Assembly (NCBI GenBank): GCA_026391695.1
Contig: JAPLDP010000036.1
Span: 11,631 to 75,630, forward strand
Direction: 5' to 3'
Length of the DNA stretch: 64,000 bases
DNA from: Bacteroidota bacterium
Lineage (GTDB): Bacteria; Bacteroidota; Bacteroidia; Bacteroidales; JAGONC01
Below are positions 41,817-60,857 of the stretch, in pieces; the stretch's first letter is position 1, and the number at the start of each line of letters is the position of its first letter. The notes under the pieces are model-generated. The model saw nothing but the letters and a program-made list of their open reading frames with translations, searched no databases and was not told where the DNA came from. The position numbers and the translations under genes were made by a program.

Positions 41817-42110
41817 TCAATATCGGCTGAAATTACGTCTTTCGCCGCCTGGACTATCTCTCCGTTCTGTTCTAGGTTTAGCTATCGATACGGAAATGAC
41901 TTTGCCATCAAATTCTGCTTGGTTCAATTCTTCAATGGCTTTCTTACCTTCTTCATCGTTTTTCATCTCAACGAATCCGAAACCTCTTGATCTGCCCGAA
42001 AATTTATCGGTAATCACTTTGGCTGATGTTACTTCGCCATACTCGTCAAATAACTGCTTTAAGTCTTCACTGCTAACTCTGAAACTTAAATTTGAAACAA
42101 AAATGTTCAT
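41817..42110 (-). CDS. RRM-type RNA-binding protein
   Basis: 97-aa ORF with RNP-2 (IFVSNL) and RNP-1 (RGFGFVEM) motifs. Confidence 0.85.
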   Translation of the reverse strand: MNIFVSNLSFRVSSEDLKQLFDEYGEVTSAKVITDKFSGRSRGFGFVEMKNDEEGKKAIEELNQAEFDGKVISVSIAKPRTERRDSPGGERRNFSRY

Positions 42111-45498: not shown

Positions 45499-45567
45499 AA
45501 TGTGTGAATGATGTAATTCTTTTCTGGAATTGTGTAACGCTTTCCGGAATTAAATGACCCACCTTTG
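45499..45567 (+). promoter_or_regulatory. 69-bp promoter module, copy S1
   Basis: AATGTGTGAATGATGTAAT-12 nt-TTGTGTAAC-25 nt-TTTG, 38 nt upstream of ATG 45606. Confidence 0.7.
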
Positions 45568-45605
45568 TTCTGTGAAAATTTATTCACAACTTAAAACTAA
45601 AAATC

Positions 45606-46142
45606 ATGAAAAAAGCAATCATTGCTTTGCTGTTCTTCCTATCGATACTAAGTTTAAATATCTCTGCTCAAAATGCAACTTCTACTGAAAAATATGGAAA
45701 GACCTTTAACTTAGGTTTGGGCATTGGGGGGTATTCAGGATATTACGGATATACAGGGCATTCATTGCCTGTTTTTCATATAAACTATGAATTTGATGTG
45801 GCAAGGAATTTTACATTAGCTCCTTTTGTCACGTTTTATACATACAGAAACGACCACTATCGTGAAACAGTTATTCCGATAGGTGTTAAAGGCACTTACT
45901 ATTTTGATCAATTACTCAGAGCTAATTCCAATTGGGATTTTTATCTGGCAGGTTCATTAGGATTTGCAATAGTAAATTCAAATTGGGATAATGACTATAA
46001 TGGTAATAAAAATTACTACCATAAAGCAAATCCATTATTTCTCGATATACATATAGGAACAGAATACCACATAAATAAGCGGTTTGGAGTATTCCTTGAC
46101 CTCTCAAGCGGTGTTTCAACTATTGGTCTAGCAATTCATTAA
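45606..46142 (+). CDS. Small outer-membrane beta-barrel protein
   Basis: 178-aa ORF with a signal peptide, alternating aromatic/Gly-rich beta-strand pattern and a terminal ...GLAIH. Confidence 0.6.
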   Translation: MKKAIIALLFFLSILSLNISAQNATSTEKYGKTFNLGLGIGGYSGYYGYTGHSLPVFHINYEFDVARNFTLAPFVTFYTYRNDHYRETVIPIGVKGTYYFDQLLRANSNWDFYLAGSLGFAIVNSNWDNDYNGNKNYYHKANPLFLDIHIGTEYHINKRFGVFLDLSSGVSTIGLAIH

Positions 46143-46175
46143 TTTCAATAAAATGAGAATCAATAATCAAGCAAA

Positions 46176-46514
46176 ATGGATAAGACAGAACTTGAAAAAT
46201 CAAAAGCGCACATCATAGTAGAAATAATTGAGTATGTTCCTAATTCGGTCGTCTGCAAAACGATTCTAAAAAAATCAACAGGAAATATCAGCGTAATGTC
46301 ATTTGACAGTGGCGAAGGGTTAACAGAAAAAACCACTCCCTTTGACACCTTCGCCCAAATCATTGAAGGTAAAGCTGAGCTCGTAATTGACGGAACTTCC
46401 ATGTTACTTGAAACAGGTCAGTCCATTATTATACCTGCTCATAAATCCAATCTCATAAAAGCAAACGGACGCTTTAAAATGATTCAGACCGTAATCAAAA
46501 GCGGTTACGAATAA
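46176..46514 (+). CDS. Cupin-domain protein
   Basis: 112-aa ORF with a cupin-like core (...FAQIIEGKAELVIDGTSMLLETGQSIIIPAHK...). Confidence 0.6.
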   Translation: MDKTELEKSKAHIIVEIIEYVPNSVVCKTILKKSTGNISVMSFDSGEGLTEKTTPFDTFAQIIEGKAELVIDGTSMLLETGQSIIIPAHKSNLIKANGRFKMIQTVIKSGYE

Positions 46515-46522
46515 CCTGTCTG

Positions 46523-46591
46523 CCGATAGGCAAATGTGTGAATGATATAATTTATTTCCGAAATTATGTAACGGTTCCCGGAATAGAGGGA
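46523..46591 (+). promoter_or_regulatory. 69-bp promoter module, copy S2
   Basis: AATGTGTGAATGATATAAT-12 nt-ATTATGTAAC-25 nt-(TAcc)TTTG, 53 nt upstream of ATG 46645. Confidence 0.7.
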
Positions 46592-46644
46592 GATACCTTT
46601 GTTAATGTAATAATTTACTCACAAACTTAAATAAACTTACAGTC

Positions 46645-46800
46645 ATGCGAAATTTACTTTATGTCATAGCCGTAATCTTGGTTGTCGCATGGGCAATTGG
46701 TTATATTAGGTACGATGCCGGCGGCATCATACACATTCTTCTTGTTATTGCAATTATTGCAGTAATACTTAGGATTATTCAAGGTAGGAGATCAAATTAA
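46645..46800 (+). CDS. lmo0937-family small membrane protein (51 aa)
   Basis: Below the ORF-track size cut-off. Manual translation: MRNLLYVIAVILVVAWAIGYIRYDAGGIIHILLVIAIIAVILRIIQGRRSN. Two TM helices and the GG(L/I)IH(I/L)LLVIA motif are typical of this family. Confidence 0.75.
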   Translation: MRNLLYVIAVILVVAWAIGYIRYDAGGIIHILLVIAIIAVILRIIQGRRSN

Positions 46801-46827
46801 ATCAAATAATTTTAAAAATCAAACAAC

Positions 46828-47148
46828 ATGAAAAAGATTGCTCTTTGTTTAATGGTAACATTTTTGTCATTAACATTTTGCCCGATTTTATCAATTGCTG
46901 CAACTACTGCTGCATCTTCTTCTCCAGTTACTTCAAAACCAGCAGAATCAGCAGAAGCTAAAACCTTACTGCTAAGGTTAGACGAAATTAAGGCGATGGA
47001 TAAGTCAAACTTAAAGCCGTCAGAGAAGAAAAATTTACGAAAAGAAGTACGTTCAATCAAACACCAGCTTAAAAGAATAGGTGGTGGCGTGTATCTTTCA
47101 GCGGGTGCAATAATTATTATCATATTGCTGCTGATTATTTTGCTGTAA
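46828..47148 (+). CDS. Hypothetical secreted/C-terminally anchored protein
   Basis: 106-aa ORF with a signal peptide, a Lys-rich helical middle and a C-terminal hydrophobic tail (GAIIIIILLLIILL). Confidence 0.6.
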   Translation: MKKIALCLMVTFLSLTFCPILSIAATTAASSSPVTSKPAESAEAKTLLLRLDEIKAMDKSNLKPSEKKNLRKEVRSIKHQLKRIGGGVYLSAGAIIIIILLLIILL

Positions 47149-47167
47149 ACAATTTAAAACAAAAATC

Positions 47168-47446
47168 ATGAGCTCAGGAAAAGTATTATTAGGCGTCTTG
47201 GCTGGCGTTGCTGTCGGTGCATTGTTAGGGATATTATTTGCCCCAGATAAAGGTTCGGAAACCCGAAAAAAAATATCAAAAAAGGGAGAGGACTATGCGG
47301 AGGCATTAAAAGAAAAATTCAATGAATTTCTTGACAGTATCTCCGAAAAATTTGAACAGGTAAAAGAAGAAGTTTACGATTTCGCTGAACAAGAACAGGC
47401 CAAATCAGATGAAGTAAAAAAGGACGTGAAAACTGCCAAGGGTTGA
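47168..47446 (+). CDS. YtxH-domain general-stress protein
   Basis: 92-aa ORF. The N-terminal LLGVLAGVAVGALLGILFAPDKGSETRKK is the YtxH signature, followed by a charged helical tail. Confidence 0.8.
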   Translation: MSSGKVLLGVLAGVAVGALLGILFAPDKGSETRKKISKKGEDYAEALKEKFNEFLDSISEKFEQVKEEVYDFAEQEQAKSDEVKKDVKTAKG

Positions 47447-47467
47447 ACTGTTATCAAAACCGAACCC

Positions 47468-47809
47468 ATGGAAGATAATTCGAAATTGATTGAATCATTG
47501 CTGGAAAAAGCTGCCGACTACGGCAAAGCAAGCTATGAGTTAGTAAAACTTAAAGCCCTGGACAAAACATCGGATGTTGTTTCTTCATTCATACCTCATA
47601 CTGTTGTCCTTGTCTTAATTGCGTCATTCATTCTTTTCCTCAATTTGGGATTAGCTTTTTGGCTTGGCGAAATCCTTGGCAAAACCTGTTTCGGATTCTT
47701 TGTGGTAGGTGCTTTTTATGGTATTATAGCGATTGTTTTACATTTTTTTATGCATAAATGGCTTAAAAAGCTTCTCTGCAATTATATCATTAAACAGGTG
47801 CTTAAATAA
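47468..47809 (+). CDS. Holin-X-like (phage holin family 3_6) small membrane protein
   Basis: 113-aa ORF with an N-terminal amphipathic helix (LIESLLEKAADYGKASYELVKLKALDK) and two TM segments, immediately after the YtxH gene. Confidence 0.6.
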   Translation: MEDNSKLIESLLEKAADYGKASYELVKLKALDKTSDVVSSFIPHTVVLVLIASFILFLNLGLAFWLGEILGKTCFGFFVVGAFYGIIAIVLHFFMHKWLKKLLCNYIIKQVLK

Positions 47810-47815
47810 AATCAC

Positions 47816-48214
47816 ATGCAAAACATATCTACCACTGCCGGGCTTAAAAATGCAATTCAATTATTAGAAGTTGATCAAGCTATTAAAGGGCAGCTATTGA
47901 AAGAACAATTCTACCTTACTTACGAGCGTTTTAAGCCTATTAACCTACTCAAGGGCACTTTGAAAGATATAGCTTCATCGCCATATTTGATCGATAACAT
48001 TTTAGGCGCTGCCACGGGTTTAGCTGCCGGGTATCTCTCAAAAAAAATATTTATAGGTGCATCAGACAACATGTTTAGAAAGCTTATCGGCTTTCTTCTA
48101 CAGTTTGGTGTTACAAAGGTTGTTGCTAAACACCCTGATGCTATTAAATCATTCGGTACGTTTATCATTCAAAATATTCACCACAAAAAAGAAATGAATT
48201 CTAAAAAGCCGTGA
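47816..48214 (+). CDS. Hypothetical protein (third member of the YtxH/holin-X cluster)
   Basis: 132-aa ORF with 6-nt spacing from the upstream gene and a 4-nt overlap (GTGA) with the downstream gene. Confidence 0.55.
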   Translation: MQNISTTAGLKNAIQLLEVDQAIKGQLLKEQFYLTYERFKPINLLKGTLKDIASSPYLIDNILGAATGLAAGYLSKKIFIGASDNMFRKLIGFLLQFGVTKVVAKHPDAIKSFGTFIIQNIHHKKEMNSKKP

Positions 48215-49338
48215 TAATTAAAGAAATAAAATTACCATTTTACGCAAAGGCAATTTTTCTTTTCATCGGCTTATTTGCCTTGTTAACGGTGTTGTATATC
48301 GCCCGGGGCATTATTGTTCCTCTCATTTTCGCACTCATTATTGCCATCCTACTCCATCCGGTCGTAAATTTTTTTGTACGGCTAAGAATAAACAGGGTAG
48401 TAGCTATTGTGATTACTTTAATCCTTACCTTTTTAGTCATTGCCGCGTTTGGTGGTTTTTTATTTGCGCAGGCACGCCGGTTTAGCGAATCATGGCCAAT
48501 GCTGGTCGATAAATTTACCGGGATGCTCAACCAAGCCATCGCCTGGGCTTCCGGTTATTTCGATATTGACCCACAAGAAATCAATGAATGGATTACAAAA
48601 ACCAAAGGTGAAATCATCAATACCAGCAGCGCTGCAATCGGGAAAACACTCATCAATGTCGGTAATGGGTTAGTGATATTGTTTTTAGTTCCCGTTTACG
48701 TCTTTATGATATTGTTTTACCAACCCCTCTTACTTGAGTTTATTCGCAGGGTTTTTGGCAAAAGTAATCAAAGTCATGTGAGCGAAATAGTTACCCAGAC
48801 CAAAACGGTTATTCAACGCTATCTGGTAGGACTGGTTATCGAAGCTGTCATGGTGGGAACACTCAATTCCGTTGCTCTTTTGATACTTGGAATCGATTAC
48901 GCTATCCTGCTCGGGATTATTGGTGCAATGCTCAACGTCATTCCATACATCGGAGGACTGGTGGCAGTAGCATTGCCCATGATGATTGCCTTGGCCACCA
49001 AATCGACAGCCTGGTACGCCCTTTACGTTCTGATAAGCTATTATTTCATCCAACTAATAGACAATAACTACATCGTTCCCAAAATAGTTGCCTCAAAAGT
49101 AAAAATCAATGCGCTTTTCTCTATAATAGTGGTACTTGCCGGGAATGCGTTATGGGGCATACCCGGTATGTTTCTTTCCTTGCCGCTCCTTGCCATTATA
49201 AAACTCATTTTCGACCATATCGAACCCTTAAAACCCTGGGGATTTTTATTAGGCGACACCATGCCCCATTTATTAAAAATTAAACCGATCCGCCTGAGAC
49301 GGTTTAAAAATAAAGCTACATGTAAGGGATTAAAATAG
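48211..49338 (+). CDS. AI-2E family transporter (PerM/UPF0118)
   Basis: 375-aa polytopic ORF whose GTG start overlaps the upstream stop. The C-terminal half has family-typical segments (NVIPYIGGLVAVALP, PKIVASKVKINALFSIIVVLAGNALWGIPGMFLSLPL). Confidence 0.8.
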   Translation: MIIKEIKLPFYAKAIFLFIGLFALLTVLYIARGIIVPLIFALIIAILLHPVVNFFVRLRINRVVAIVITLILTFLVIAAFGGFLFAQARRFSESWPMLVDKFTGMLNQAIAWASGYFDIDPQEINEWITKTKGEIINTSSAAIGKTLINVGNGLVILFLVPVYVFMILFYQPLLLEFIRRVFGKSNQSHVSEIVTQTKTVIQRYLVGLVIEAVMVGTLNSVALLILGIDYAILLGIIGAMLNVIPYIGGLVAVALPMMIALATKSTAWYALYVLISYYFIQLIDNNYIVPKIVASKVKINALFSIIVVLAGNALWGIPGMFLSLPLLAIIKLIFDHIEPLKPWGFLLGDTMPHLLKIKPIRLRRFKNKATCKGLK

Positions 49339-49341
49339 AAG

Positions 49342-49449
49342 CATAGAAGTAAATGTTCGGAAAAAATAGTCATGGGAAGTGTTACGGAAAAAGTTTTAGG
49401 TCACACTTCTATACCGCTTTTTATCATTCCAACTAGAAAACACAATTAA
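49342..49449 (+). pseudogene. 3'-terminal remnant (36 codons) of a universal stress protein gene
   Basis: HRSKCSEKIVMGSVTEKVLGHTSIPLFIIPTRKHN* closely matches the last 35 aa of the USP at 50954..51439 (HSRKWLEKIVMGSVTEKVLSHTSIPLFIIPTKRHN*), with few nucleotide mismatches by eye. It begins 4 nt after the AI-2E stop and has no N-terminal part. Confidence 0.75.
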
Positions 49450-49520
49450 TTTAAAAAGTCTTAAATACTAACATCTTCCCTATCCGGCAAATTATGCATA
49501 AGAGGCACAAACCATTCGAA

Positions 49521-49589
49521 AATGTGTGAATGATGTAACTTATTTCTAAAGTTGTGTAACATTTTTTTTTGAGGTTGATCATACCTTTG
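49521..49589 (+). promoter_or_regulatory. 69-bp promoter module, copy S3
   Basis: AATGTGTGAATGATGTAAC-12 nt-TTGTGTAAC-25 nt-(TAcc)TTTG, 59 nt upstream of ATG 49649. Confidence 0.7.
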
Positions 49590-49648
49590 ATCCTTAATAT
49601 TTCATTAGTAGTAAATAAAAAGAGTATTCACATTGTAAATTTAAAGCC

Positions 49649-49810
49649 ATGGCAAGATTGTTATTGATCATTGGGCTAATACTTATTGTCCTTTGGTTGC
49701 TTGGATTTTTAGCGTTTCATATATCCACACCAGTTCTTCATGCGCTAATTGTTATTGGTATTATTCTGATCATCCTCGATCTTCTTAACAGTCGCCGAAA
49801 TTGGTGGTAA
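49649..49810 (+). CDS. lmo0937-like small membrane protein (53 aa), second paralog
   Basis: Manual translation: MARLLLIIGLILIVLWLLGFLAFHISTPVLHALIVIGIILIILDLLNSRRNWW. It has the same two-TM layout as 46645..46800. Confidence 0.65.
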   Translation: MARLLLIIGLILIVLWLLGFLAFHISTPVLHALIVIGIILIILDLLNSRRNWW

Positions 49811-49820
49811 TTGTCTTTAA

Positions 49821-50174
49821 ATGAAAATTGTCATTAATAACAACAGGAAAATTTTCGCAATTCAGGAAGAATTTAGCAACATGTTTCCTGGTCTGAAAAT
49901 TGTCTTCTTTGCTAAACCCAGTAAACCCTGAGCTGCTCCATCAACAAAACTGGTCAGGCATAGCAGTAAAACATTGCAGGAATGCAGAGCCATCCACAAG
50001 GAAGGGACAATTGAAATTCAACCATCCATGACCATATCGGATTTGAAAGAAAATTTTAGAGATATATATGGATTATCGGTTGAAATATATCAAAAAGCAG
50101 GAAACGGCTCTAATGAAAACCCTGTCAGCGATGACCTTACCATCGAAGAAATAAACAGACAGCATTCCATGTAA
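49821..50174 (+). pseudogene. Conserved-hypothetical gene (~117 codons) interrupted by an in-frame TGA at codon 37
   Basis: MKIVINNNRKIFAIQEEFSNMFPGLKIVFFAKPSKP*AAPSTKLV...TIEIQPSMTISDLKENFRDIYGLSVEIYQKAGNG... The TGA is at 49929-49931, and the track ORF 49974..50174 is in the same frame as ATG 49821. Confidence 0.6.
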
Positions 50175-50307
50175 ATGATCTCTCGGATCCTTTTTAAAAA
50201 ATAAAGCAGACAATAATTATCTTTTAAATTAAAAATCGTTACACACTGAACGATGCAGTGGTTTTTATCATGATTTGCATGAACCAGCTCGTCCGGCGTT
50301 CCTTTTA

Positions 50308-50376
50308 AATGTGTGAATAATGTAACTCTTTTCAAAAGTTGTGTAACACTTATCCGGTTAAAGATTCGCAACTTTG
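50308..50376 (+). promoter_or_regulatory. 69-bp promoter module, copy S4
   Basis: AATGTGTGAATAATGTAAC-12 nt-TTGTGTAAC-25 nt-TTTG, 18 nt upstream of ATG 50395. Confidence 0.7.
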
Positions 50377-50394
50377 TTCTCTCAAAATTTATTA

Positions 50395-50760
50395 ATGCAT
50401 ATGAAAGAAAAGGGCGACAATACTTACCTGCCCAACCGGCGGGCAGGCGACGAAGAGGAAAATAACCTTCAGGGATACCCTTTATATCCTGCCAGTGAAG
50501 ATATTTACAATAAATACCAAAAAGAGCAAAATATAAATCCTGAGGATATATCCAAAAAAAAAGAATCAAATGAAAATAATAAAGTTGGAACATGCAACGA
50601 AAAAGATTTTAATGACGATGTATCGGGCAGCGACTTAGATATTCCCGGCTCAGAATTAGATGATAAACAAGAAATTGTTGGAAGTGAAGATGAAGAGAAT
50701 AACTATTACAGTTTAGGGGGAGATGATCATAACGATCTGGAAGAGTGTAAAGGAGAATGA
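50395..50760 (+). CDS. Acidic, probably disordered protein (copy A)
   Basis: The track ORF starts at a TTG inside the -7 box, so I use ATG 50395 (MHMKEKGDNTYLPNRRAG...). It is about one third Asp/Glu and near-identical to 57977..58342. Confidence 0.65.
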   Translation: MHMKEKGDNTYLPNRRAGDEEENNLQGYPLYPASEDIYNKYQKEQNINPEDISKKKESNENNKVGTCNEKDFNDDVSGSDLDIPGSELDDKQEIVGSEDEENNYYSLGGDDHNDLEECKGE

Positions 50761-50953
50761 AAAGCACATAAGTACCATTGGTATATTATGACACTAAAGG
50801 GTTATACAAAAAGAGGCTGTCTAAAAAAATTATTACTAATACGAATTAAGGATCAAAATAAGTTCTCTGAATTTAGTCTTCTGGGACTTGGTTCTTGACT
50901 CTTTGTTCTCATACAAATAGTAACCTCATTCTCAGATAAAACATACAACGAAC

Positions 50954-51439
50954 ATGAAAACAAATAAAATGACAAAAGTATTGATTGCGCTGGATTATGA
51001 TCCAACCGCACAAAAAGTAGCAGAACTAGGGTTTTCATTAGCTAAAACTATGGGGGCTGAAGTTATATTGCTACATGTAATATCAGATCCGGTGTATTAT
51101 TCCTCAGCAGAATATTCTCCGATAATGGGATTTAATGGTTTCATGGAAACAGGTCCATTGCAATTGAATAGTGTTGATGCTTTGAAAAGGGCATCCTTAC
51201 ATTTTCTTGACAAATCGAGACACCACCTTGGTGATAAATCCATTCAAACTTTAGTAGAAGAAGGTGATTTGGCTGAATCCATATTAAAGACTGCAAAAGA
51301 CTTGCATGTAGATGTTATTGTCATGGGCTCTCACAGCAGGAAATGGTTAGAAAAAATAGTCATGGGAAGTGTAACGGAAAAAGTTTTAAGTCACACTTCT
51401 ATACCGCTTTTCATCATTCCAACTAAAAGACACAACTAA
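50954..51439 (+). CDS. Universal stress protein (UspA family)
   Basis: 161-aa ORF with the typical VLIALDYD... start and C-terminal VIVMGSHSRKWLEKIVMGSVTEKVLSHTSIPLFIIP. Confidence 0.85.
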   Translation: MKTNKMTKVLIALDYDPTAQKVAELGFSLAKTMGAEVILLHVISDPVYYSSAEYSPIMGFNGFMETGPLQLNSVDALKRASLHFLDKSRHHLGDKSIQTLVEEGDLAESILKTAKDLHVDVIVMGSHSRKWLEKIVMGSVTEKVLSHTSIPLFIIPTKRHN

Positions 51440-51461
51440 TTTAGGATTAATAAATAAAAAT

Positions 51462-51623
51462 ATGAAAGAATTCAAATTATTCACTCCTGAAAAGGTTGGA
51501 ATCGTAGAAGTGAAAAATCGTGTTGTTATGTCACCTATGACAAGGTGCAGGGCAATTGGAAATGTGCCCAATGAACTGATGGCAGATTATAAACAACGGT
51601 CAGGGGCCGGGTTCATGCAATAA
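51462..51623 (+). pseudogene. 5' fragment (53 codons) of an Old-Yellow-Enzyme-type NADH:flavin oxidoreductase
   Basis: Manual translation: MKEFKLFTPEKVGIVEVKNRVVMSPMTRCRAIGNVPNELMADYKQRSGAGFMQ*. This is the OYE N-terminal signature (LKNRxVMxPMTRxRA...P..LM..YY.QR) followed by a premature stop, and no continuation lies downstream. Confidence 0.65.
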
Positions 51624-52001
51624 TTCACCGTTTGTCTATGAAGCAGGCTTAAAAGCAGGGATTTGGAAACTTTTTGAAATATATGTATCTTTGCTGGTTT
51701 CTGACAATATTGTATCAATCACCAGATCATTCATTGCCAGGATACGTTTTGTTTTCAAATTGGATGCATTTGATTTGGTCAGACTGAAAAATGTGCCATA
51801 AAAAAAACCATGTATCACTAGTGTCCGATTAATACCAATGCTAAAACATTTAGCTCCTTTGAAGATTTCAAAAAACAATTTTCAAATGCGGGTAAAACAA
51901 GTTGTTTAGAATTATGATATTTTTTCATTTATTTTGTATTGACATGTAATCGGATATTACGTAATTCCGATATTTACAGACAATAAAAAACACCGCTCAT
52001 G

Positions 52002-52048
52002 AAACATCCATGATACCTCAATCACAAAAAGATATATCATGGATGTTT
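52002..52048. promoter_or_regulatory. Perfect 14-bp inverted repeat with a 19-nt spacer upstream of the CheB/CheR gene
   Basis: AAACATCCATGATA (52002-52015) and TATCATGGATGTTT (52035-52048). It lies 34 nt before the GTG start at 52082. Confidence 0.5.
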
Positions 52049-52081
52049 TACGGGTCAGTAAATTATTTAAAATAATTACGA

Positions 52082-55012
52082 GTGAAACCCAAGAAACTGA
52101 AATCGACAGTATCTTCAAAAGAAAAAACTTCTGATTTAGATAACAGCCAGTTCCCAATAGTCGGTATCGGCGCATCGGCTGGCGGACTGGAAGCGTTGGA
52201 GCAATTTCTGGGTAATGTGCCTGAAAACAGTGGAATGGCATATGTTGTTATCCAACATCTGGATCCTACACAGAAAGGCATGTTGCCGGAGTTGCTTCAG
52301 CGAAATTCCAAAATGAAGGTTTTTCAGGTAAAAGACCGTATGCCTGTAAAGCCAAACTGTGTGTATGTAATTCCGCCAAACACGAGCATGTCCATATTAA
52401 AGGGGATACTTCACCTGTTTGAACCAATAGAAGCAAGAGGACTGCGCCTTCCGATTGATTCTTTCTTTCGCTCGCTTGCCGACGACCGGCAGGAAAGAAG
52501 TATCGGTCTCATTCTTTCGGGTATGGGCTCCGACGGCAGTATAGGACTCCGTGCCATAAAAGAAAAAAACGGGATAGTGATGGTACAGGACCCTGCTACG
52601 GCAAAATTCGACAGCATGCCCCGCAATGCCATCGATTCCGTGGTGGTCGATATTATGGCTCCCGCCAACGAGTTGCCTGCAAGGCTCATTGATTTTCTTA
52701 AACTTTTTCCTGCCATCAAAGCAAATCTGGAGCTAGAGATTAAAGACAAAAGCTCTCTCGAAAAAATAATTATTCTACTGCGGGCCTATACCGGCAACGA
52801 CTTTTCGCTTTATAAAAAAAATACGGTGTATCGCCGCATCGAAAGGCGCATGGCCGTCCACAAAATTGATAAGATATCTTCATACGTCCGTTTTTTGCAG
52901 GAAAATCCAAATGAATTGGATATTCTTTTTAAAGAATTGATGATTGGCGTAACTAATTTTTTTCGCGATCCTATCGTATGGGAAAAGTTGAAAGAGACGG
53001 TTATTCCAACTATTATTGCTAACCTGAAAGCCGGTTCAATATTGCGGGCATGGATACCAGGGTGTTCTACCGGAGAAGAGGCATATTCGTTAGCCATAGT
53101 GTTCAAAGAAGCGCTTGAAAAAGTCAATCCGCGCGGAGGCTTTTCGTTACAGATATTTGCTACCGATCTCGACAATGACGCTATTGTGATAGCCAGAAAA
53201 GGCATATTTCCTGCAAATATTGCTGCCGATGTATCACCAAATCGCCTGAACCGCTTTTTTAATAAAACAGATGACGGCTATCGCGTCAATGATGAAATAA
53301 GGGAAAAGGTTGTGTTTGCACAACACAACATTACCATGCATCCGCCTTTTACCAAGATCGATATCCTTTCGTGCCGCAATCTGCTTATTTACATGGATAC
53401 TGAGTTGCAAAAAAAATTGCTCGGGATGTTTTACTATAGTATTAACCCCGAAGGAATTATGCTGCTGGGCAGCTCCGAAACACTTAGAACGCAGAGTCAT
53501 CTTTTTACACCTGTGGATGCCAAATTGAAAATTTTCAAACGCTCCGTTACTACCCTGATACCTGAATTATTCGATTTCCCCGCTTCATTTTCCCGGACCA
53601 AACCGACCAATATTGAAGAACAAATACCTGCCAAATCAACCCTGAATATTCAAACGCTTGCCGATCAACTGCTGTTGCAGCATTTTTCATCTGCCGGTGT
53701 TTTGGTGAACGAAAATGGCGACATCATTTACATCAGCGGACGTACAGGAAAATATCTGGAGCCGGCGGTTGGTAAAGCAAACATGAATATTTTTGCAATG
53801 TTACGCGAAGGTTTGCGCGACGAATTTTCAATTGCGTTCCGCAAAGCTGTATTGAAAAAAGAATCTGTGATTTTGAGCAATATCAAAGTAGGTACAAACG
53901 GGGATACACAAACCTTAAATATTAACATTAAATGGATTGATAAACCGGAGCCTTTAAACGGCTCGGTAATGATAATTTTTACTGATGTGCCGGAGATTAC
54001 TGACATCAAACTGAAGGTAGAAAAAAGAAAAAAGACTTTAAGCAGTATCAGGCAATCGGAGTTGGAGAAAGAGCTGCAGCATACACGTGAAGAAATGCAG
54101 AACACTCTCGAAGAAATGCAGACTTCGCAGGAAGAACAGAAATCTACAAACGAGGAATTACAATCTACCAATGAAGAACTGCAATCTACCAATGAAGAAC
54201 TCACGAGTTCCAAAGAAGAAATGCAAAGCCTGAATGAAGAACTTCAAACGGTGAACGTTGAATTGCAGTCGAAGATAGATGATTTTACGCGGGTGAACAA
54301 TGATATGAAAAACCTGCTCAACAGCACCGATATTGCTACTTTATTTCTCGACAAAGAATTGAATATCCGTCGCTATACCATTCAGGCGACCAAAATTTTT
54401 AAACTCATAAAAAGCGACATAGGAAGGCCTTTTACCGACCAGGTTTCCGACCTTATATACCCCGAATTGGCTGCCGATGCCCTTGAAGTATTAAGGACAC
54501 TAGTATTTATACAAAAACAAATTCCTGCCAAAGACGAGCGATGGTTTTCCATTCGCATTATGCCCTACCGCACCTTCGACGACAAAATAGACGGCCTGGT
54601 CATCACTTTTATCGACATCTCCGATCTCAGGCAGGTGGAAGTAAAATTACATGAAACAGGGCAGATGCATCGTTTGCTCTTAAATTCATCCTCAGATGTA
54701 ATAATTAAATTATCAACCGACTGGAAAATACTGGAGTTTAATCCCGAAGCCGAAAAATTTTTCGGCAAAAAACATGAGGATGCAGTAAACCAAAATTATA
54801 TTCAGATGTTTATTCCTGAACCGGTGCGAAAAAAGACTGAAAAAGATATGAATAGGCTGCTGAACAAAATGCTTGATGGCAAATTCAAAATGCAGGTAAT
54901 TGAAGCCGGAGGTTATATGCCAGTTGTTGAATGGTCCGTAAATGTACTGCTCAACAACCTGAAAATGCCAGCAGGAATGATTATTATCACTAAAAAAATA
55001 ACAAAGCCATGA
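52082..55012 (+). CDS. CheB-methylesterase / CheR-methyltransferase fusion with coiled coil and PAS domains, lacking an output kinase
   Basis: 976-aa ORF with a GTG start. The CheB-type domain is VGIGASAGGLEALEQF...VVIQHLDP. The CheR-type SAM domain is RAWIPGCSTGEEAYSLAI...IFATDLD. The heptad-like EELQSTNEELQSTNEEL coiled coil is followed by two PAS-like regions. Confidence 0.8.
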   Translation: MKPKKLKSTVSSKEKTSDLDNSQFPIVGIGASAGGLEALEQFLGNVPENSGMAYVVIQHLDPTQKGMLPELLQRNSKMKVFQVKDRMPVKPNCVYVIPPNTSMSILKGILHLFEPIEARGLRLPIDSFFRSLADDRQERSIGLILSGMGSDGSIGLRAIKEKNGIVMVQDPATAKFDSMPRNAIDSVVVDIMAPANELPARLIDFLKLFPAIKANLELEIKDKSSLEKIIILLRAYTGNDFSLYKKNTVYRRIERRMAVHKIDKISSYVRFLQENPNELDILFKELMIGVTNFFRDPIVWEKLKETVIPTIIANLKAGSILRAWIPGCSTGEEAYSLAIVFKEALEKVNPRGGFSLQIFATDLDNDAIVIARKGIFPANIAADVSPNRLNRFFNKTDDGYRVNDEIREKVVFAQHNITMHPPFTKIDILSCRNLLIYMDTELQKKLLGMFYYSINPEGIMLLGSSETLRTQSHLFTPVDAKLKIFKRSVTTLIPELFDFPASFSRTKPTNIEEQIPAKSTLNIQTLADQLLLQHFSSAGVLVNENGDIIYISGRTGKYLEPAVGKANMNIFAMLREGLRDEFSIAFRKAVLKKESVILSNIKVGTNGDTQTLNINIKWIDKPEPLNGSVMIIFTDVPEITDIKLKVEKRKKTLSSIRQSELEKELQHTREEMQNTLEEMQTSQEEQKSTNEELQSTNEELQSTNEELTSSKEEMQSLNEELQTVNVELQSKIDDFTRVNNDMKNLLNSTDIATLFLDKELNIRRYTIQATKIFKLIKSDIGRPFTDQVSDLIYPELAADALEVLRTLVFIQKQIPAKDERWFSIRIMPYRTFDDKIDGLVITFIDISDLRQVEVKLHETGQMHRLLLNSSSDVIIKLSTDWKILEFNPEAEKFFGKKHEDAVNQNYIQMFIPEPVRKKTEKDMNRLLNKMLDGKFKMQVIEAGGYMPVVEWSVNVLLNNLKMPAGMIIITKKITKP

Positions 55013-55572
55013 GTAACGAAGAAATGGATTTTACAGATGCACAAATGCTGCGCATGAAAGCTGAAGAACAACTGAAAGAGAAGCAAAAAAAAATAGACAA
55101 GTCGGTTATGGAAACTGACGTGAAAAAGCTCCTGCACGAACTGCAGGTGCACCAGATAGAATTAGAAATGCAGAACGAAGAGTTGCGCCAGGCATATGAA
55201 ACGGCAGAAACAGCCCTTAAAAAATACACCATGTTGTACGATTTAGCCCCAATGGGCTATTTTACACTCGATTCCGATGGCAGTATCTGCGATCTGAACT
55301 TCACTGGCGCCGAAATGCTTGGCGATAAACGCGTTAGTTTGATAAACAGCAACTTTAAGCTATTCGTTTCCGAAGATTCGAAGCCTGTATTTAACAATTT
55401 TTTCAGAAAAATTTATGCCAGTAATGCTAAAGAATCGTGCGAAGTGATGCTTGGTTATGACAATAATCCTTTGTGCTTTGTTTATATGGAAGGCATAGTT
55501 ACAGGCGATGACCGGAAATGCCTTTTGTCGGTAGTTGATATTTCAGGCTTCAAAAAGCAGAGCAATCCTTAA
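55009..55572 (+). CDS. Stand-alone coiled-coil plus PAS-domain protein
   Basis: 187-aa ORF overlapping the upstream stop by 4 nt (ATGA). It has an LQVHQIELEMQNEELRQAYE leader and a PAS fold, ends right after the PAS domain (..VVDISGFKKQSNP*) and has no kinase domain. Confidence 0.7.
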   Translation: MSNEEMDFTDAQMLRMKAEEQLKEKQKKIDKSVMETDVKKLLHELQVHQIELEMQNEELRQAYETAETALKKYTMLYDLAPMGYFTLDSDGSICDLNFTGAEMLGDKRVSLINSNFKLFVSEDSKPVFNNFFRKIYASNAKESCEVMLGYDNNPLCFVYMEGIVTGDDRKCLLSVVDISGFKKQSNP

Positions 55573-55640
55573 ATACTACCATTGAACATTCCAAGAAAGA
55601 GGAGTCCAAATAAATCAGCACATCAAATAGATAGTGTCTG

Positions 55641-57227
55641 TTACGAATTCCTACGCTTCTTCGGGCTTTTAGCAAGGCTGGATTTAATTCCTGACAGAAT
55701 AGATTTGAAGCAATAATTAAAAAAGGATCTTTCGGGATCTCTTTCATAATCTATAATTCCCTCTCTTACATCTTCATCCGGAAGCGGATTTGAATCCAAC
55801 ACTTTTATATTGGCAATAAATGACATAAATCTCTCTCTAAAGGCGGTTGTATCATCCGTCCGCTTATTCTTAACTGCGATATTCAATCCATGATAAAGCA
55901 TGGTCATTTTGCCGGTTGCTTTAGCGTTATTTGCCGTAAGGCTGAAATGCATCGCATCTATTTTACCGGATGTAGCATAAATAAAAGCATTTTTCTCCAG
56001 CATAGGATTCAATTCACTTGCCTCCATGTCCGAAATAGTTCCATTCAATGAAAAGGTATTATCACTGTCGAATATTCTTCCTTTTAATAAAACAGTCATC
56101 TTGCCTTTTCCCATTAACAAGGCATCAGCATTAAGTTCTATAGCAGCGTTTTCTGTTTTGTAAATAGTGTCGTTAGTGATTTTGTAGATTTTAGCATGGA
56201 GCGCATTAAAGCTGATCCTTCCTGGCTCGTTTGCCTCCTTAACATGTTCGGTGTACGTGATATTCCCGCTTATAAGACCGATTGAATCAATGCGGATAAT
56301 GCCGGGATAGTTGTAAATCATATCCTGGAATACGGTCTTGTTCACATGCAAGAATTTTTTTCGATTATCACGAAAAACTTTCATATCCATTTTTTCGATT
56401 TCGATATAAGAGCTTATCAGGCTCCTGGATCTGAAATAACCTGCAGCAGAAAAATCGTGAACGTAAATGTTGCTGAACCAGGCTTCAATACGTTCCTTTT
56501 GAAATTTATACCGTGATGTGAAATCATAATCTGTGTAATTCGGCTGAATAGAAAAGCTGTTTACCGCTAAGGTATTTGAAGTTGCGGAATAGATTATACC
56601 GCTGGCTGTAAACGAATACATGCTGTCGGACGAAACCGAAAGGAGTTCTTCGGCCTCGAAATCAAATTGCCTAACAATGCCAGGGGATAAGGTATCCTGT
56701 TTCTCAACCTGTAAATTGTAAATTTTCAAAACGCCTTCTTTCATCGAATAAGACAGTGCGGATGAAGTGTTTTCCATCGCCAGGTCTATTTTATCAAAAA
56801 GTATTTTACCTATCCGGATGTTCAAAGGCGAAACTATTGGCGGTATTGCTTCCCCCGAAAATGGAATCTTACCCATAATACTACTATTGGAAATGATTAC
56901 TTCACTGATGTAAATATCTTTTTTGAATATGGCTTTCGCGAGTTTGATTCCATTGAATCTTATAGACGCTATTTGCCCGTTTACATCCCGGTCGGCTCCC
57001 TGCTCCTGCTTTAAGCATACTGTAATACCTTCCAGTTCTATCCCTGATGACATTATCAAAACATGAACCTTGTCTACTTCAACCTTGTAATCTCTGCTGT
57101 TTTCATTTAATGCTGCCCGAACTTTTTTCCCAACCCAGGGCTCAACAATGACTAACATTAAGAATACCAGCAATACCGCCAGAGCAACTATCCCGAGTAA
57201 AATTTTCAAAAATAATTTCCTTTTCAT
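55641..57227 (-). CDS. N-terminally anchored envelope protein of unknown function (possibly AsmA/DUF748-like)
   Basis: 528-aa ORF with a single N-terminal TM segment and a long beta-rich body. The family assignment is tentative. Confidence 0.5.
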   Translation of the reverse strand: MKRKLFLKILLGIVALAVLLVFLMLVIVEPWVGKKVRAALNENSRDYKVEVDKVHVLIMSSGIELEGITVCLKQEQGADRDVNGQIASIRFNGIKLAKAIFKKDIYISEVIISNSSIMGKIPFSGEAIPPIVSPLNIRIGKILFDKIDLAMENTSSALSYSMKEGVLKIYNLQVEKQDTLSPGIVRQFDFEAEELLSVSSDSMYSFTASGIIYSATSNTLAVNSFSIQPNYTDYDFTSRYKFQKERIEAWFSNIYVHDFSAAGYFRSRSLISSYIEIEKMDMKVFRDNRKKFLHVNKTVFQDMIYNYPGIIRIDSIGLISGNITYTEHVKEANEPGRISFNALHAKIYKITNDTIYKTENAAIELNADALLMGKGKMTVLLKGRIFDSDNTFSLNGTISDMEASELNPMLEKNAFIYATSGKIDAMHFSLTANNAKATGKMTMLYHGLNIAVKNKRTDDTTAFRERFMSFIANIKVLDSNPLPDEDVREGIIDYERDPERSFFNYCFKSILSGIKSSLAKSPKKRRNS

Positions 57228-57268
57228 GATGTGAAATCATTAAACACTTCTTTACCTGACAGGTAAAA

Positions 57269-57481
57269 TCACTTCTTTTTTGCACTGTAGAATAATACAG
57301 CCCCACCAATCACCATGACTGCAACTCCGATTAACGGTGACCATGCTAATACATGTATTTTATCCCGGGTGATTTCCACTTTACCTATGTCCACTACTTT
57401 CTTTTTTGTTACAAAGTTGAATCCCGTGAAAACGGTAATCAGCAAACCTACTACCAAAATGATGATGCCTACTTTTTTCAT
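57269..57481 (-). CDS. Small two-TM membrane protein (70 aa)
   Basis: The start was set at the ATG (MKKVGIIILVVGLLITVF...) rather than the TTG of the track ORF. A second TM is AWSPLIGVAVMVIGGAVLFY. Confidence 0.55.
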   Translation of the reverse strand: MKKVGIIILVVGLLITVFTGFNFVTKKKVVDIGKVEITRDKIHVLAWSPLIGVAVMVIGGAVLFYSAKKK

Positions 57482-57524
57482 AAATTTAATTTTAAGTGAC
57501 AATTAAATACTGAAGCAGTTATTG

Positions 57525-57680
57525 TCACACCCGGCTTTTCCCACGGATAATCCGCAGTATTACAGCAATCAATGCAATAACCAGCAATACGTGAATGAGT
57601 CCCCCGGCATGAAAACCTATGAATCCAATTGCTCAACCTATTATCAGAATTACGACAACGATGTAAAGCAGATTTCCCAT
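57525..57680 (-). pseudogene. lmo0937-family gene (third paralog) with an in-frame TGA replacing the conserved Trp codon 16
   Basis: Manual translation: MGNLLYIVVVILIIG*AIGFIGFHAGGLIHVLLVIALIAVILRIIRGKSRV*. It has the same length (52 codons) as 46645..46800, where codon 16 is TGG (W). The TGA is at 57635-57633. Confidence 0.7.
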
Positions 57681-57718
57681 GATTTCGTGTTTTAAGTTGT
57701 TTGGAAATTTTAACAATG

Positions 57719-57787
57719 CAAAGATGCCACCACTTGTTTTCAAAACCGTTACACAATTCCATAAATGAGTTACATCATTCACACATT
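57719..57787 (-). promoter_or_regulatory. 69-bp promoter module, copy S5 (minus strand)
   Basis: The reverse complement reads AATGTGTGAATGATGTAAC-12 nt-TTGTGTAAC-25 nt-TTTG, 38 nt upstream of ATG 57680. Confidence 0.7.
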
Positions 57788-57889
57788 AGACTATATCAGC
57801 ACTTTGCGCAACTTTACCTACATTGTAGCTCGCAGATTGTTCCTTCTCACTATAGGCATCTTAAACATAAAAGACGCAAACTACCTGAA

Positions 57890-57958
57890 AATGTGTGAAT
57901 GATGTAGCTCTTTTCAAAAGTTGTGTAACACTTATCCGGTTAAAAATGCTCAACTTTG
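57890..57958 (+). promoter_or_regulatory. 69-bp promoter module, copy S6
   Basis: AATGTGTGAATGATGTAGC-12 nt-TTGTGTAAC-25 nt-TTTG, 18 nt upstream of ATG 57977. It is divergent from S5. Confidence 0.7.
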
Positions 57959-57976
57959 TTCTCTCAAAATTCATTA

Positions 57977-58342
57977 ATGCATATGAAAGAAAAGGGCGAC
58001 AATACGAACCTGCCTAACCGGCGGGCAGGCAACGAAGAGAAAAATAACCTTCAGGGATACCCATTATATCCTGCCAGCGAAGATATTTACAATAAATGCC
58101 AAAAAGAGAAGAACATAAATCCTGAGGATATATCCAAAATTAAAGAATCAAATGAAAATGATAAAGTTGGAACACGTAACGAAAAAGATTTTAATGACGA
58201 TGTATCCGGCAGCGACTTAGATATTCCCGGCTCAGAATTGGATGATAAACAAGAAATTGTTGGAAGTGAAGATGAGGAGAATAACTATTACAGTTTAGGG
58301 GGAGATGATCATAACGATCTGGAAGAGTATAAAGGAGAATGA
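57977..58342 (+). CDS. Acidic, probably disordered protein (copy B)
   Basis: MHMKEKGDNTNLPNRRAGNEEKNNLQGYPLYPASEDIYNK..., a paralog of 50395..50760. Confidence 0.65.
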   Translation: MHMKEKGDNTNLPNRRAGNEEKNNLQGYPLYPASEDIYNKCQKEKNINPEDISKIKESNENDKVGTRNEKDFNDDVSGSDLDIPGSELDDKQEIVGSEDEENNYYSLGGDDHNDLEEYKGE

Positions 58343-58472
58343 AAATTCATGAGTACCACTTGTCGATAATTCTGCAATGTGGGCCCCCGAGGTGCCAATG
58401 GAACTTAAGAAACTCAAAGGATATACCGATTATCCGCTCTATAAAGCCTGATCAACACAATTCAATAAATAC

Positions 58473-59360
58473 ATGATTTTCGTAGACTATTATAAAATAT
58501 TGGGGATAGATAAAACGGCAACGCCAAAGGACATCAAAAATGCCTATCGGAAATTGGCCAGAAAGTATCACCCCGATTTAAATCCGAATGATAAAGAAGC
58601 TAAAAAGAGTTTTCAGCAGATCAATGAAGCAAATGAAGTATTGAGCGATCCCGAAAAACGCAAGAAATATGATCAATATGGAGAGGATTGGCAACATGCG
58701 GAAGAATTTGAAAAAGCAAAACACTATCAGGAACAATCATCAAACTCGCGTGGGGCAAGCTATTCAGAAACATCTTTTGGAGGAGATTTTTCCGATTTTT
58801 TTAAATCCATGTTTGCTGGATCCGCAGGTGCCGGCAGCAGCAGACAAGTGAAATACAGAGGAGAAGATTACAACGCGGAATTACATCTCGACCTTATCGA
58901 TGCATATAAAACCCACAAACAAACGTTAACGGTAAACGGGAAAAACATAAGAATTACTATCCCTGCCGGAATTGAAAATGGACAAACAATTAAAATTTCA
59001 GGGCATGGAGGCCCGGGAATAAATGGTGGCCCGAACGGTGATTTATATATTACATTTTCAATAGCCAATCACCCAAAAATTAAACGTTTGGGAAATAATT
59101 TATATACTACGGTAGATTTAGATTTGTACACAGCTGTGTTGGGAGGTGAAATCACAATGGATACCTTAAACGGAAAAGTAAAACTTAAAGTAAAGCCTGA
59201 AACACAAAATGGAAGTAAAATAAAATTAAAAGGTAAGGGATTTCCTGTTTATAAAAATGTAGGGGATTTTGGAGATTTATATGTGACCTATGCCATTAAA
59301 ATTCCAACAAATTTAACGGATAAGCAAAAAATATTATTTACCGAATTATCTAAATCGTAA
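58473..59360 (+). CDS. cbpA: DnaJ-class co-chaperone without zinc finger (CbpA-like curved-DNA-binding protein)
   Basis: 295-aa ORF with a J domain ([34 protein letters not shown]), a G/F-like linker, no CxxCxGxG repeats and DnaJ C-terminal domains. Confidence 0.8.
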
Positions 59361-59377: not shown

Positions 59378-59677
59378 ATGCAAACAGGATATTTAATAGC
59401 TGTAAATGAGTTCTGTGCCAACCACAACATTGAGATTTCATTTATCAGTTCATTACAACAAACCGGATTGATAGAAATTACTACCATCAAAGAAACAGGG
59501 TTTATTGATGCAAGCCAGCTACAACATTTAGAGAAAATTGTTCGCTTATATTATGAGTTGGATATTAACTTGGAAGGTATTGAGACCATCACTCATTTAT
59601 TACAGCGAATAAAATCTTTGCAGGATGAAATTATTGCGCTCAGAAACAGGCTTCGTCTTTATGAAATAGAAGTGTAA
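59378..59677 (+). CDS. cbpM: CbpM-like chaperone modulator (MerR-fold small protein)
   Basis: 99-aa ORF 17 nt after the cbpA-like gene. Its size, position and C-terminal coiled coil (LQDEIIALRNRLRLYE) fit CbpM. Confidence 0.55.
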   Translation: MQTGYLIAVNEFCANHNIEISFISSLQQTGLIEITTIKETGFIDASQLQHLEKIVRLYYELDINLEGIETITHLLQRIKSLQDEIIALRNRLRLYEIEV

Positions 59678-60198
59678 ACTCACCTGAGTCAGCTAGTGTG
59701 CATAATTATTCAGCGTATTCTCTGATTGCCCCGATAAGACGATCTTGTCCTGAAGTTCTTGGAATAAATTTCCAAAACCACGTATTTTATGGCGTTCCTG
59801 TTCACCAATAGTGAACGATTTTTTTCTTAATTTAGACGAAGTATTTTTTGCAGTATAAAGATTTTGATGTTATATTTGTACTACATTTATTGAAAAGCTT
59901 TTCTCGTGGCAAGGCTCTGTCCGGGACAAAATTTATTGCTGTGCACTGCAAATGCCAGCACGTGTTGAAAAAAAATATGCCCGTCCGTGTGGGCATCTTA
60001 AATATAAGATTCTTAATTTTATGAAATAAAACAGATGCCCACCTGCATGGCTAACAACACGGTCGGGCCTCTGCAATTGAACGTAAGAGGCAATTGTTTT
60101 GACAACAGTACGAACATCTGACTTATAGAATAAAAACATTACGACAAAAAAACATTACCCTATAAGCAACGAATAAATTGAAGCTCTTCATCAAATAT

Positions 60199-60738: not shown

Positions 60739-60857
60739 ACAATGTAACTTAACCGTTACCCACCAGTCCGTTAATCCGCCGGAAAATTTCACCCCGCAAA
60801 GCTTCTGCACCAAAAAAGAGTCCGCATAAGCTTATGATGATGATGTATTATTTTACT

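Follow-up and report, generated by a model that had tools for sequence, protein, structure and literature searches.

The activation of transcription by AraC-type proteins at tandem direct repeats is well described, as for AraC at araI1-I2 and XylS at the Pm promoter. A single AraC-type domain, with its two helix-turn-helix (HTH) motifs, is expected to leave an asymmetric footprint of about 19 bp. To our knowledge, Bacteroidota are without sigma S, sigma B and EcfG, and how they coordinate their general-stress genes is largely unknown; we know of no general-stress master regulator that has been defined in the phylum. Here we describe a 69-bp promoter-like module, together with a candidate AraC-family regulator for it, in a stretch of 64,000 nucleotides (nt) from a Bacteroidota bacterium of the Bacteroidales lineage JAGONC01 (GenBank assembly GCA_026391695.1, contig JAPLDP010000036.1, positions 11,631 to 75,630 of the forward strand). 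This whole stretch is referred to below as the window.

The window contains six full copies of the module, five on the forward strand and one on the reverse, at 45499-45567 (+; module 1), 46533-46601 (+; module 2), 49521-49589 (+; module 3), 50308-50376 (+; module 4), 57719-57787 (-; module 5) and 57890-57958 (+; module 6). Each is made up of a 19-nt box 1 with the consensus AATGTGTGAATGATGTAAC, 11 nt, a 10-nt box 2 (RTTRTGTAAC), 25 nt and TTTG. All six sites had been picked out in a first-pass annotation, which placed the second of them 10 nt too low (46523-46591) and gave the gap after box 1 as 12 nt, a value with which the parts (19+12+10+25+4) would total 70. The uniform box sequence that it reported holds as an approximate consensus, from which box 1 deviates in four copies and box 2 in one. 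Module 1 has AATGTGTGAATGATGTAAT as box 1, ending in TAAT, and ATTGTGTAAC as box 2; in module 2 the boxes read GATATAAT and ATTATGTAAC, and the deviations in box 1 of modules 4 and 6 are AATAATG and TAGC respectively. The remaining geometry agrees with what had been proposed. The spacing of exactly 25 nt between box 2 and TTTG is seen in all six copies, as is the terminal (T/C)AnnTTTG (CACCTTTG, TACCTTTG, TACCTTTG, CAACTTTG, CATCTTTG and CAACTTTG in modules 1 to 6), and the ends of the two GTAAC sequences are 21 bp apart. In modules 1 to 6 the downstream gene begins with an ATG that comes 38, 43, 59, 18, 38 and 18 nt past the TTTG, matching the range of 18-59 nt given before; module 2 has an earlier, out-of-context ATG 3 nt past its TTTG.

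The two boxes share a direct repeat, A-R-T-n-R-TGTAAC, at module positions 9-19 and 30-40, giving a period of 21 bp, and on its 5' side box 1 has a further arm that is highly conserved, AATGTGTG. A pattern of 23 specified bases matched the window six times and 100 dinucleotide-preserving shuffles not once, even when three mismatches were tolerated. The copies had been taken as six separate examples of the promoter. Modules 4 and 6, however, belong to one 482-bp duplication (50307-50789 and 57889-58370, 93% identical), which has the module at its very start and takes in the gene of an acidic protein, so that five copies are independent.

To see how far the module extends beyond this genome, one genome per species was scanned for 185,579 bacterial and archaeal species with the pattern TGTGTGAANNATNTANNNNNTTTNNNNNNTTNTGTAAC. 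This yielded at least 120 stretches, handled as 8-kb blocks, with 126 exact matches; the block-based counts given here and below concern these listed matches, and individual loci are cited by L numbers. Among the matches listed all but two records were labelled as Bacteroidota, the exceptions being one record without an organism label and one 3.7-kb contig in a metagenome-assembled genome (MAG) labelled 'Syntrophales'. Among the taxa with listed matches are Bacteroidales, Prolixibacteraceae, Paludibacter, Mariniphaga and Lentimicrobiaceae, as well as Chitinophagales, Saprospiraceae, Cytophagales, Flavobacteriales, Sphingobacteriia and Kapaibacterium; the isolates Sunxiuqinia indica and Niastella caeni HX-16-21 are also represented. 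Several columns that the pattern left free are conserved over 128 sites. In box 1 these are A1 (101 sites), A2 (117), T11 (119) and A18 (124), and at the 3' end A63 (111), C65 (84), T66 (125), T67 (128), T68 (98) and G69 (82). The conservation of these unpatterned columns means that throughout the phylum AnCTTTG keeps a constant spacing to box 2, and it is found 25 nt past the second GTAAC in 87% of the sites.

A relaxed scan of the listed blocks, allowing up to four mismatches, added 134 sites, 131 of them with TT at positions 66-67, and brought the total to about 250 modules in the 120 blocks. Most sites (217) have 25 nt between GTAAC and TTTG, while 29 have 24 nt and 3 have 26 nt. In the relaxed sites GTGAA (positions 6-10) and TnTAA (35-39) are rigid, while positions 3, 23-25, 36 and 40 are tolerant. 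One module is present in 46 blocks, two in 36, three in 21, four in 12 and five in 4. Clustering of the kind seen in the window is common, and a single MAG may also have modules on several contigs. What had been described as a compact regulon of 12.5 kb is instead a phylum-wide and often clustered one, with at least one more module beyond the window.

The modules are placed as promoters would be. In the listed genomes only 6.5% of them lie inside an open reading frame (ORF) of at least 100 residues, compared with 67% of random positions. For 44% of the modules an ORF of this size opens with ATG 10-120 nt downstream on the same strand, a figure that leaves out many targets shorter than 100 residues; for random positions the value is 5%. 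In the other genomes the first ATG of an ORF of at least 30 residues comes at a median of 39 nt past TTTG. This intergenic placement, with the modules pointing at gene starts, rejects a dispersed repeat inserted irrespective of genes, which the first-pass annotation had named as the finding that would speak against it; the scan of other genomes that it had recommended shows the module to be conserved across Bacteroidota orders and enriched ahead of gene starts.

The primary sigma factor of Bacteroidota recognises a -7 box, TAnnTTTG, located at -12 to -5 (PMC9723704), and the canonical promoter combines TTTG at -33 with this box (Bayley 2000, Vingadassalom 2005 and Chen 2007, as cited in PMC9723704). 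If the 3' end of the module were to occupy -12 to -5, transcription would start about 5 nt after G69 and the GTAAC sequences of box 2 and box 1 would lie at -38 to -34 and -59 to -55 respectively. On this predicted start their ends fall at about -34 and -55, very near the -35 and -56 suggested earlier. The -33 TTTG is absent from the modules at 19-21 nt upstream of the -7 box; positions 36-42 are instead GTAAC, A/G and C in nearly all sites. A missing -33 TTTG is what is expected of an activator-dependent promoter. A scan for sigma-70 promoters and terminators is uninformative for Bacteroidota.

At the predicted +1 of module 1 there is a palindrome, GTGAAAATTTATTCAC, at 45572-45587 (+), which can form a hairpin (-4.2 kcal/mol, z -3.2). 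Palindromes of the form GTGAA-N6-TTCAC or GTGAAA-N4-TTTCAC are found 3-5 nt past TTTG in only about 13-16 of the 128 modules, among them those at loci L021, L024, L051, L062, L078, L084, L085, L087, L100, L101, L113 and L117. There is mutual information between positions 74/89, 75/88 and 76/87, and GTAAT..ATTAC takes the place of the palindrome in a few sites. This element could be a 5'-terminal stem-loop of the mRNA or a second operator that reuses the GTGAA of box 1.

The lead to a candidate regulator was provided by loci L004 and L082, in which the first ORFs downstream are homologues of an AraC-family ORF at 60178-60738 (+) of the window. This gene (GenBank MCX6234084.1) is outside the region covered by the first-pass annotation and encodes 186 residues, or 179 if translation starts at the ATG at 60199. 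Using tblastn, homologues that are 47-82% identical were found in 27 of the 120 listed motif blocks. An unbiased clustering of the 2,447 ORFs in these blocks put AraC proteins and histidine kinases jointly at the top with 26 loci each, followed by cupin (23 loci), CsbD (21), OmpA-like (21), ice-binding-like (18), DUF5670 (16), YtxH (16), beta-barrel (14) and MlaD/E/F proteins (12-13). No DNA-binding family besides AraC was enriched in the listed blocks by this clustering.

The link between the module and the AraC gene extends to the reading frame. In 16 of 33 homologous genes position 1 of a module falls exactly 5 nt short of where the last codon ends, and in this register AAT GTG TGA of box 1 encodes the Asn-Val-stop of the AraC gene. 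The window retains a relic of this arrangement. At 60730-60748 (+) there is a seventh, incomplete copy that has kept box 1 alone, AATGTGTGAACAATGTAAC, of which AAT GTG TGA closes the AraC gene with its final two codons and stop in the same register; box 2 and the -7 box are lost through decay, and the gene that follows is convergent. Sampling was also carried out in reverse, by protein and not by motif, over 80 metagenomic loci (584 of 600 candidates confirmed). In this set a full module overlaps the stop codon in 22 of the 63 evaluable genes, and many of the others keep a degenerate box 1; hand-picked homologue contigs showed the overlapping module in 3/3. Modules are also found upstream of AraC paralogues, in seven genes of the motif blocks (at 60-400 nt) and in 13/65 of those sampled by protein (at 60-420 nt). 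Around the protein-sampled AraC genes the density is 2.4 modules per 10 kb; for comparison, outside the island of modules the window has none over roughly 57 kb. An overlap with the stop codon and a high density of operators around the gene are the usual signature of a regulator that adjoins its own operators.

The protein has an AraC-type domain with two HTH motifs (Pfam HTH_18, E 1.4e-17; HTH_AraC, E 2.8e-11), and a profile search of the PDB gave matches to the corresponding domains of YesN, XylR and AraT. In the AlphaFold2 model (predicted local distance difference test, pLDDT, 86.9) a beta-alpha-beta-beta-alpha-beta domain of residues 2-62 is joined by a linker helix (65-83) to a seven-helix AraC domain (92-175). 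Foldseek aligned the C-terminal domain with AraT, YesN, MarA, SoxS and Rob (target TM-scores 0.75-0.86). For the N-terminal domain it returned weak matches to Atx1/HMA metallochaperones (target TM-score ~0.67-0.70, E 0.09-0.2), so that the model weakly suggests a ferredoxin/HMA-like fold; the CxxC motif of HMA domains is absent from the N-terminal domain. Arg12-Cys13-Lys14-Met15 is invariant in 30 homologues. The homologue family is very large, with at least 8,000 clusters named only 'AraC family transcriptional regulator'. There is no NCBIfam subfamily model for the protein, and it scores 22.8 bits against the SoxS model, for which the cut-off is 174.

It would seem likely from these comparisons that the module is an activator-dependent promoter of the primary sigma factor, carrying two direct-repeat AraC sites 21 bp apart with the proximal one at -33. 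A tandem repeat with its proximal site over -33 is the architecture of araI1-I2 and XylS Pm, which points to class II AraC-dependent activation, and box 1 with its AATGTGTG arm has the asymmetric extent of about 19 bp expected for one AraC domain. In such a promoter nAnCTTTG (module positions 62-69) would be the -7 box, with the start about 5 nt after the final G; in module 1 this would be the G of GTGAAAAT, 4-6 nt after the G of TTTG. Box 1 (1-19) would then extend from about -73 to -55 and the region of box 2 (22-40) from about -52 to -34. Two protomers of the 60178-60738 protein would bind both sites head-to-tail, with the strong distal site nucleating binding and the weaker proximal site overlapping the -33 region, and the bound protein would recruit or position RNA polymerase as a class II activator. 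The signal may be sensed by the N-terminal domain with the invariant Cys13, or may arrive via the linked phosphorelay. The output would be a programme of general-stress type with feedback, which would comprise CsbD, YtxH, DUF5670/lmo0937, Thivi_2564, cupin, Usp, OmpA-like, beta-barrel, MlaEFD, CbpA/CbpM and ice-binding-like proteins. The promoter cassette with rigidly placed boxes, read by one dedicated factor and serving stress and envelope genes, that the first-pass annotation had put forward thus gains support from comparison between genomes.

Several observations weigh against an AraC-dependent promoter of this kind. The proximal site is without a counterpart of the AATGTGTG arm, so that the two protomers may not be equivalent. 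The positions that the search pattern fixed carry an ascertainment bias, as seen from the tolerance of positions 3, 23-25, 36 and 40 in the relaxed scan. The first base of the -7 box, T62, is present in just 37 of the 128 sites, making the box nAnCTTTG and not TAnnTTTG, and its poor conservation leaves room for a different sigma factor. A gene for an ECF-like (extracytoplasmic function) sigma factor recurs in some islands and has a module ahead of it in two genomes. The AraC gene of the window itself is without a full module upstream, and the AraC gene could be just a conserved target or neighbour of the regulon and not its regulator.

The sigma gene raises the question of whether the module is the promoter of a dedicated ECF-like sigma factor, with one GTAAC as -35 and AnCTTTG as -10, and the AraC gene a mere member of the regulon. 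GTAAC and GGAAC are typical -35 cores of ECF promoters, and a rigid spacing between -35 and -10 is what a sigma factor imposes. An orthologous sigma factor of 172 residues (Sigma70_r2 and Sigma70_r4_2), 37-44% identical between loci, is encoded at L042, L098, L108, L121 and L125, with a partial match at L058. In two of these the module stands directly ahead of the sigma gene, as if it were autoregulated (L125 13995-14063 and L042 ~7039-7107), and the unconserved T62 would be in line with this. However, 21-25 nt separate GTAAC from the -10-like box, where ECF promoters have 16-17 nt, and two GTAAC boxes 21 bp apart with the AATGTGTG arm reaching to about -73 exceed the footprint of a sigma factor. 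The gene is found in 3 of the 120 listed blocks (and in part in one more) compared with 27 for AraC, there is no sigma cluster among the enriched families of the listed blocks, and the 64-kb window is without it. The box resembles the -7 box of the primary sigma factor (TTTG, with T67 in 128/128) and not the CGT-type -10 of ECF promoters (PMC9723704). We regard a dedicated ECF-like sigma factor as an unlikely reader of the module; the modules ahead of its gene in two genomes suggest a second regulatory tier in some lineages.

The boxes might otherwise be read by a factor that is not linked to them, for example a response regulator of the LytTR type, with the AraC protein as a target and perhaps a second-tier regulator. 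Direct repeats of 9 bp with a 12-bp spacer are the classical layout of LytTR sites such as those of AgrA and ComE, and TGATGTAAC, 12 nt and TTGTGTAAC fit this 9+12+9 geometry. Histidine kinases (26 loci) and receivers (11 loci) are enriched near the modules, and modules ahead of AraC paralogues make AraC at least a target. The conserved site, though, far exceeds 9 bp, box 1 alone being 19 bp, and neither LytTR nor another DNA-binding output domain is enriched, the linked receivers being receiver-only or receiver-Hpt proteins. Together with the stop-codon overlap and the module density around the AraC genes (2.4 per 10 kb), which fit a regulator beside its own operators, this makes an unlinked factor just as improbable to us as the sigma factor. 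A module that is no promoter at all, be it a dispersed repeat, a miniature mobile element or a structured cis-regulatory RNA transcribed from upstream, would seem very improbable. It is true that copies are near-identical within one genome, that one metagenome assembly breaks inside a module, and that the spacer has a weak dyad (TAACTT..AAGTTA). But the modules are largely intergenic and face gene starts, they are conserved across orders ahead of the same gene families, and outside the duplication of modules 4 and 6 the copies have unrelated flanks immediately upstream; terminal inverted repeats are absent, and target-site duplications were not looked for.

RNA structure within the module was considered separately. 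The spacer hairpin that can be drawn by eye showed no significant covariation over the 128 sites (positions 19/31, Fisher p = 0.12), and the pairs with the highest mutual information reflect just the register shift between 24 and 25 nt. As a structured RNA the six modules fold no better than shuffles (z -1.5 to +0.1), with folds that differ between copies, and Rfam gave no match at E <= 1 over the modules.

Having favoured an AraC-dependent promoter, we turn to the genes that it would serve. Module 1 precedes a signal-peptide protein (45606-46142, +) and a cupin (46176-46514, +). The first of these, 178 residues long, had been labelled an outer-membrane beta-barrel and has no family match, whereas most other gene labels of the first-pass annotation stand according to Pfam and NCBIfam. 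Module 2 is ahead of a run of forward-strand genes that ends at 49338, encoding in order a DUF5670/lmo0937 peptide (46645-46800), a secreted protein of 106 residues, YtxH, a holin-X-like protein, a protein of 132 residues and an AI-2E transporter. A DUF5670-like peptide (49649-49810, +) follows module 3. Module 4, inside the duplication, is ahead of the acidic protein of 121 residues (50395-50760, +), which carries a GYPxYP..EDIY motif, and on the same strand a Usp gene comes next (50954-51439, +). Module 6, its duplicate, is ahead of the second copy of the acidic protein (57977-58342, +), followed by DnaJ/CbpA-like (58473-59360, +) and MerR_2/CbpM-like (59378-59677, +) genes. The family assignments of the two DUF5670/lmo0937 genes, YtxH, AI-2E, Usp, DnaJ/CbpA-like and MerR_2/CbpM-like are supported by Pfam or NCBIfam; the matches to Phage_holin_3_6 (for the holin-X-like protein) and cupin fall below the Pfam cut-off.

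Module 5 faces the reverse strand and is ahead of a third lmo0937/DUF5670 paralogue (57525-57680, -), followed by a membrane protein of 70 residues (57269-57481, -) and an envelope protein of 528 residues (55641-57227, -). The paralogue had been called a pseudogene, in agreement with a single in-frame TGA at 57633-57635 (-), at a conserved Trp codon (MGNLLYIVVVILIIG*AIGF...); the rest of the frame is intact, and the TGA may mark a recent pseudogene, be a sequencing error or allow read-through. Antisense to the gene of the 70-residue protein there is a weak match to the fluoride riboswitch at 57425-57478 (+), which at 19.5 bits (gathering threshold 34, E 0.18) is most likely due to chance.

Beyond the relic at the end of the AraC gene lies a convergent unit (60858-64000, -) with genes for a protein of 610 residues (60858-62690), MlaD (62779-63522) and the Mla ABC ATPase (63566 to past 64000). 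A Logan contig that encodes an identical MlaD, L127, starts in the middle of a module (L127 1-57) about 290 nt upstream of mlaE, which places an eighth module upstream of mlaE just past the end of the window. The unit is probably driven by this module, and the repeated box 1 probably breaks short-read assemblies.

Among the direct targets counted for 250 modules across the listed blocks are CsbD (19), ice-binding-like proteins (16), OmpA/glycine-zipper lipoproteins (15), cupins (10), Thivi_2564 peptides (7), the acidic GYPxYP protein (6), sensor kinases (6), DUF5670 (5), the 70-residue membrane protein (5), MlaE (5), AraC (4), YtxH (4), the secreted 106-residue family (4) and CbpA (3). The content of this set is that of general stress and the envelope. 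In other genomes modules are also found ahead of AraC paralogues, PAS kinases, receiver and receiver-Hpt proteins and the ECF-like sigma factor, and these regulators and kinases among the targets suggest feedback and a phosphorelay input.

Linked signalling genes are seen in several places. In locus L123 an island at 10001-20435 encodes, in order, AraC1, a module, AraC2, a PAS kinase, a receiver-Hpt protein, a receiver, a hybrid kinase, a module, OmpA and MlaE/F/D; this cassette of signalling and output might show how the regulator is controlled. In the window, a fusion of CheB methylesterase, CheR methyltransferase, coiled coil and PAS (976 residues, 52082-55012, +) lies between modules 4 and 5, overlapped by 4 nt by the gene of a PAS protein of 187 residues without a kinase domain (55009-55572, +). 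Relatives of the fusion are found in eight motif loci and those of the smaller PAS protein in three, with PAS kinases being direct targets elsewhere. A few kb upstream of the island there is an RRM-type RNA-binding protein of 97 residues with a glycine/arginine-rich tail (41817-42110, -), which has no module ahead of it.

We found no description of the operator, the regulon or the AraC subfamily in Rfam, Pfam, NCBIfam or the full-text literature, in which subscription journals are mostly not covered, and the module is not among the six sigma motifs reported in the start-site study of F. psychrophilum (PMC9723704). The regulon, of general-stress type, is thus apparently undescribed. While AraC-type activation at tandem direct repeats is known, the subfamily, the operator, its breadth across the phylum, its embedding in a stop codon and the general-stress content are new. 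More tentatively, and with rather less assurance than for the promoter itself, we propose that the HMA-like/AraC protein may be a master general-stress activator across much of Bacteroidota, which would act via a 40-bp bipartite operator fused to the -7 box, be fed by the PAS-kinase/receiver/Hpt phosphorelay and/or Cys13, and have the operator of the next promoter written in its own last codons and stop. If this is true, the protein would be the functional counterpart in Bacteroidota of sigma S, sigma B and EcfG.

The operator/promoter of about 69 bp can be scanned for in any Bacteroidota genome to predict the regulon, and a named candidate regulator makes the control of general stress in the phylum directly testable. 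The module would also offer a portable and probably inducible promoter cassette for a phylum in which genetic tools are scarce, and it gives a regulatory context to small proteins of unknown function, such as DUF5670/lmo0937, Thivi_2564 and the acidic GYPxYP protein. Were the assignment to AraC wrong, the module would still mark a regulon with a factor yet to be found.

How the module relates to described systems can be set out from the promoter outwards. Its 3' end resembles the -7 box of the canonical primary-sigma promoter of Bacteroidota, with a near-invariant TTTG and A as second base, 18-59 nt before start codons; it differs in having GTAAC at -33 and in lacking a phylum-wide conserved T as first base of the -7 box. 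With araI1-I2 of AraC and Pm of XylS it shares two asymmetric direct-repeat sites of 17-19 bp with a period of 21 bp, or two helical turns, a weaker proximal site that on the predicted start would cover the equivalent of -35, a two-HTH AraC domain, and an imperfect core promoter, which presumably depends on an activator. In contrast to these, the host polymerase follows the -7/-33 promoter grammar of Bacteroidota, the operator sequence is unrelated, and the regulator has a ferredoxin/HMA-like N-terminal domain of about 60 residues in place of a cupin domain for sugar binding and dimerisation; there are many promoters across a phylum and not one catabolic operon, with binding and activation being predicted.

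MarA, SoxS and Rob of Enterobacteria are similar in being small AraC-type proteins with many dispersed promoters, each marked by an asymmetric box of some 20 bp that keeps a constant spacing to the core promoter, and with stress and envelope protection as the output, and they provide the closest structures of the DNA-binding domain (1bl0, 1xs9, 7w5w and 1d5y). MarA and SoxS, however, bind as monomers to a single degenerate marbox, whereas here there are two boxes of far higher conservation; an additional N-terminal domain is present, and there is no orthology at the level of sequence. In its gene content the regulon recalls those of sigma B in Firmicutes, sigma S in Proteobacteria and EcfG in Alphaproteobacteria, with CsbD, YtxH, lmo0937-type peptides, Usp, Dps/ferritin and CbpA-type chaperones in common, and the linked PAS kinases and single-domain receivers recall the phosphorelays upstream of EcfG. 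The difference is that here an activator working with the housekeeping sigma factor, and not a replacement of sigma, would be in control of a stress response that is predicted from the content of its genes.

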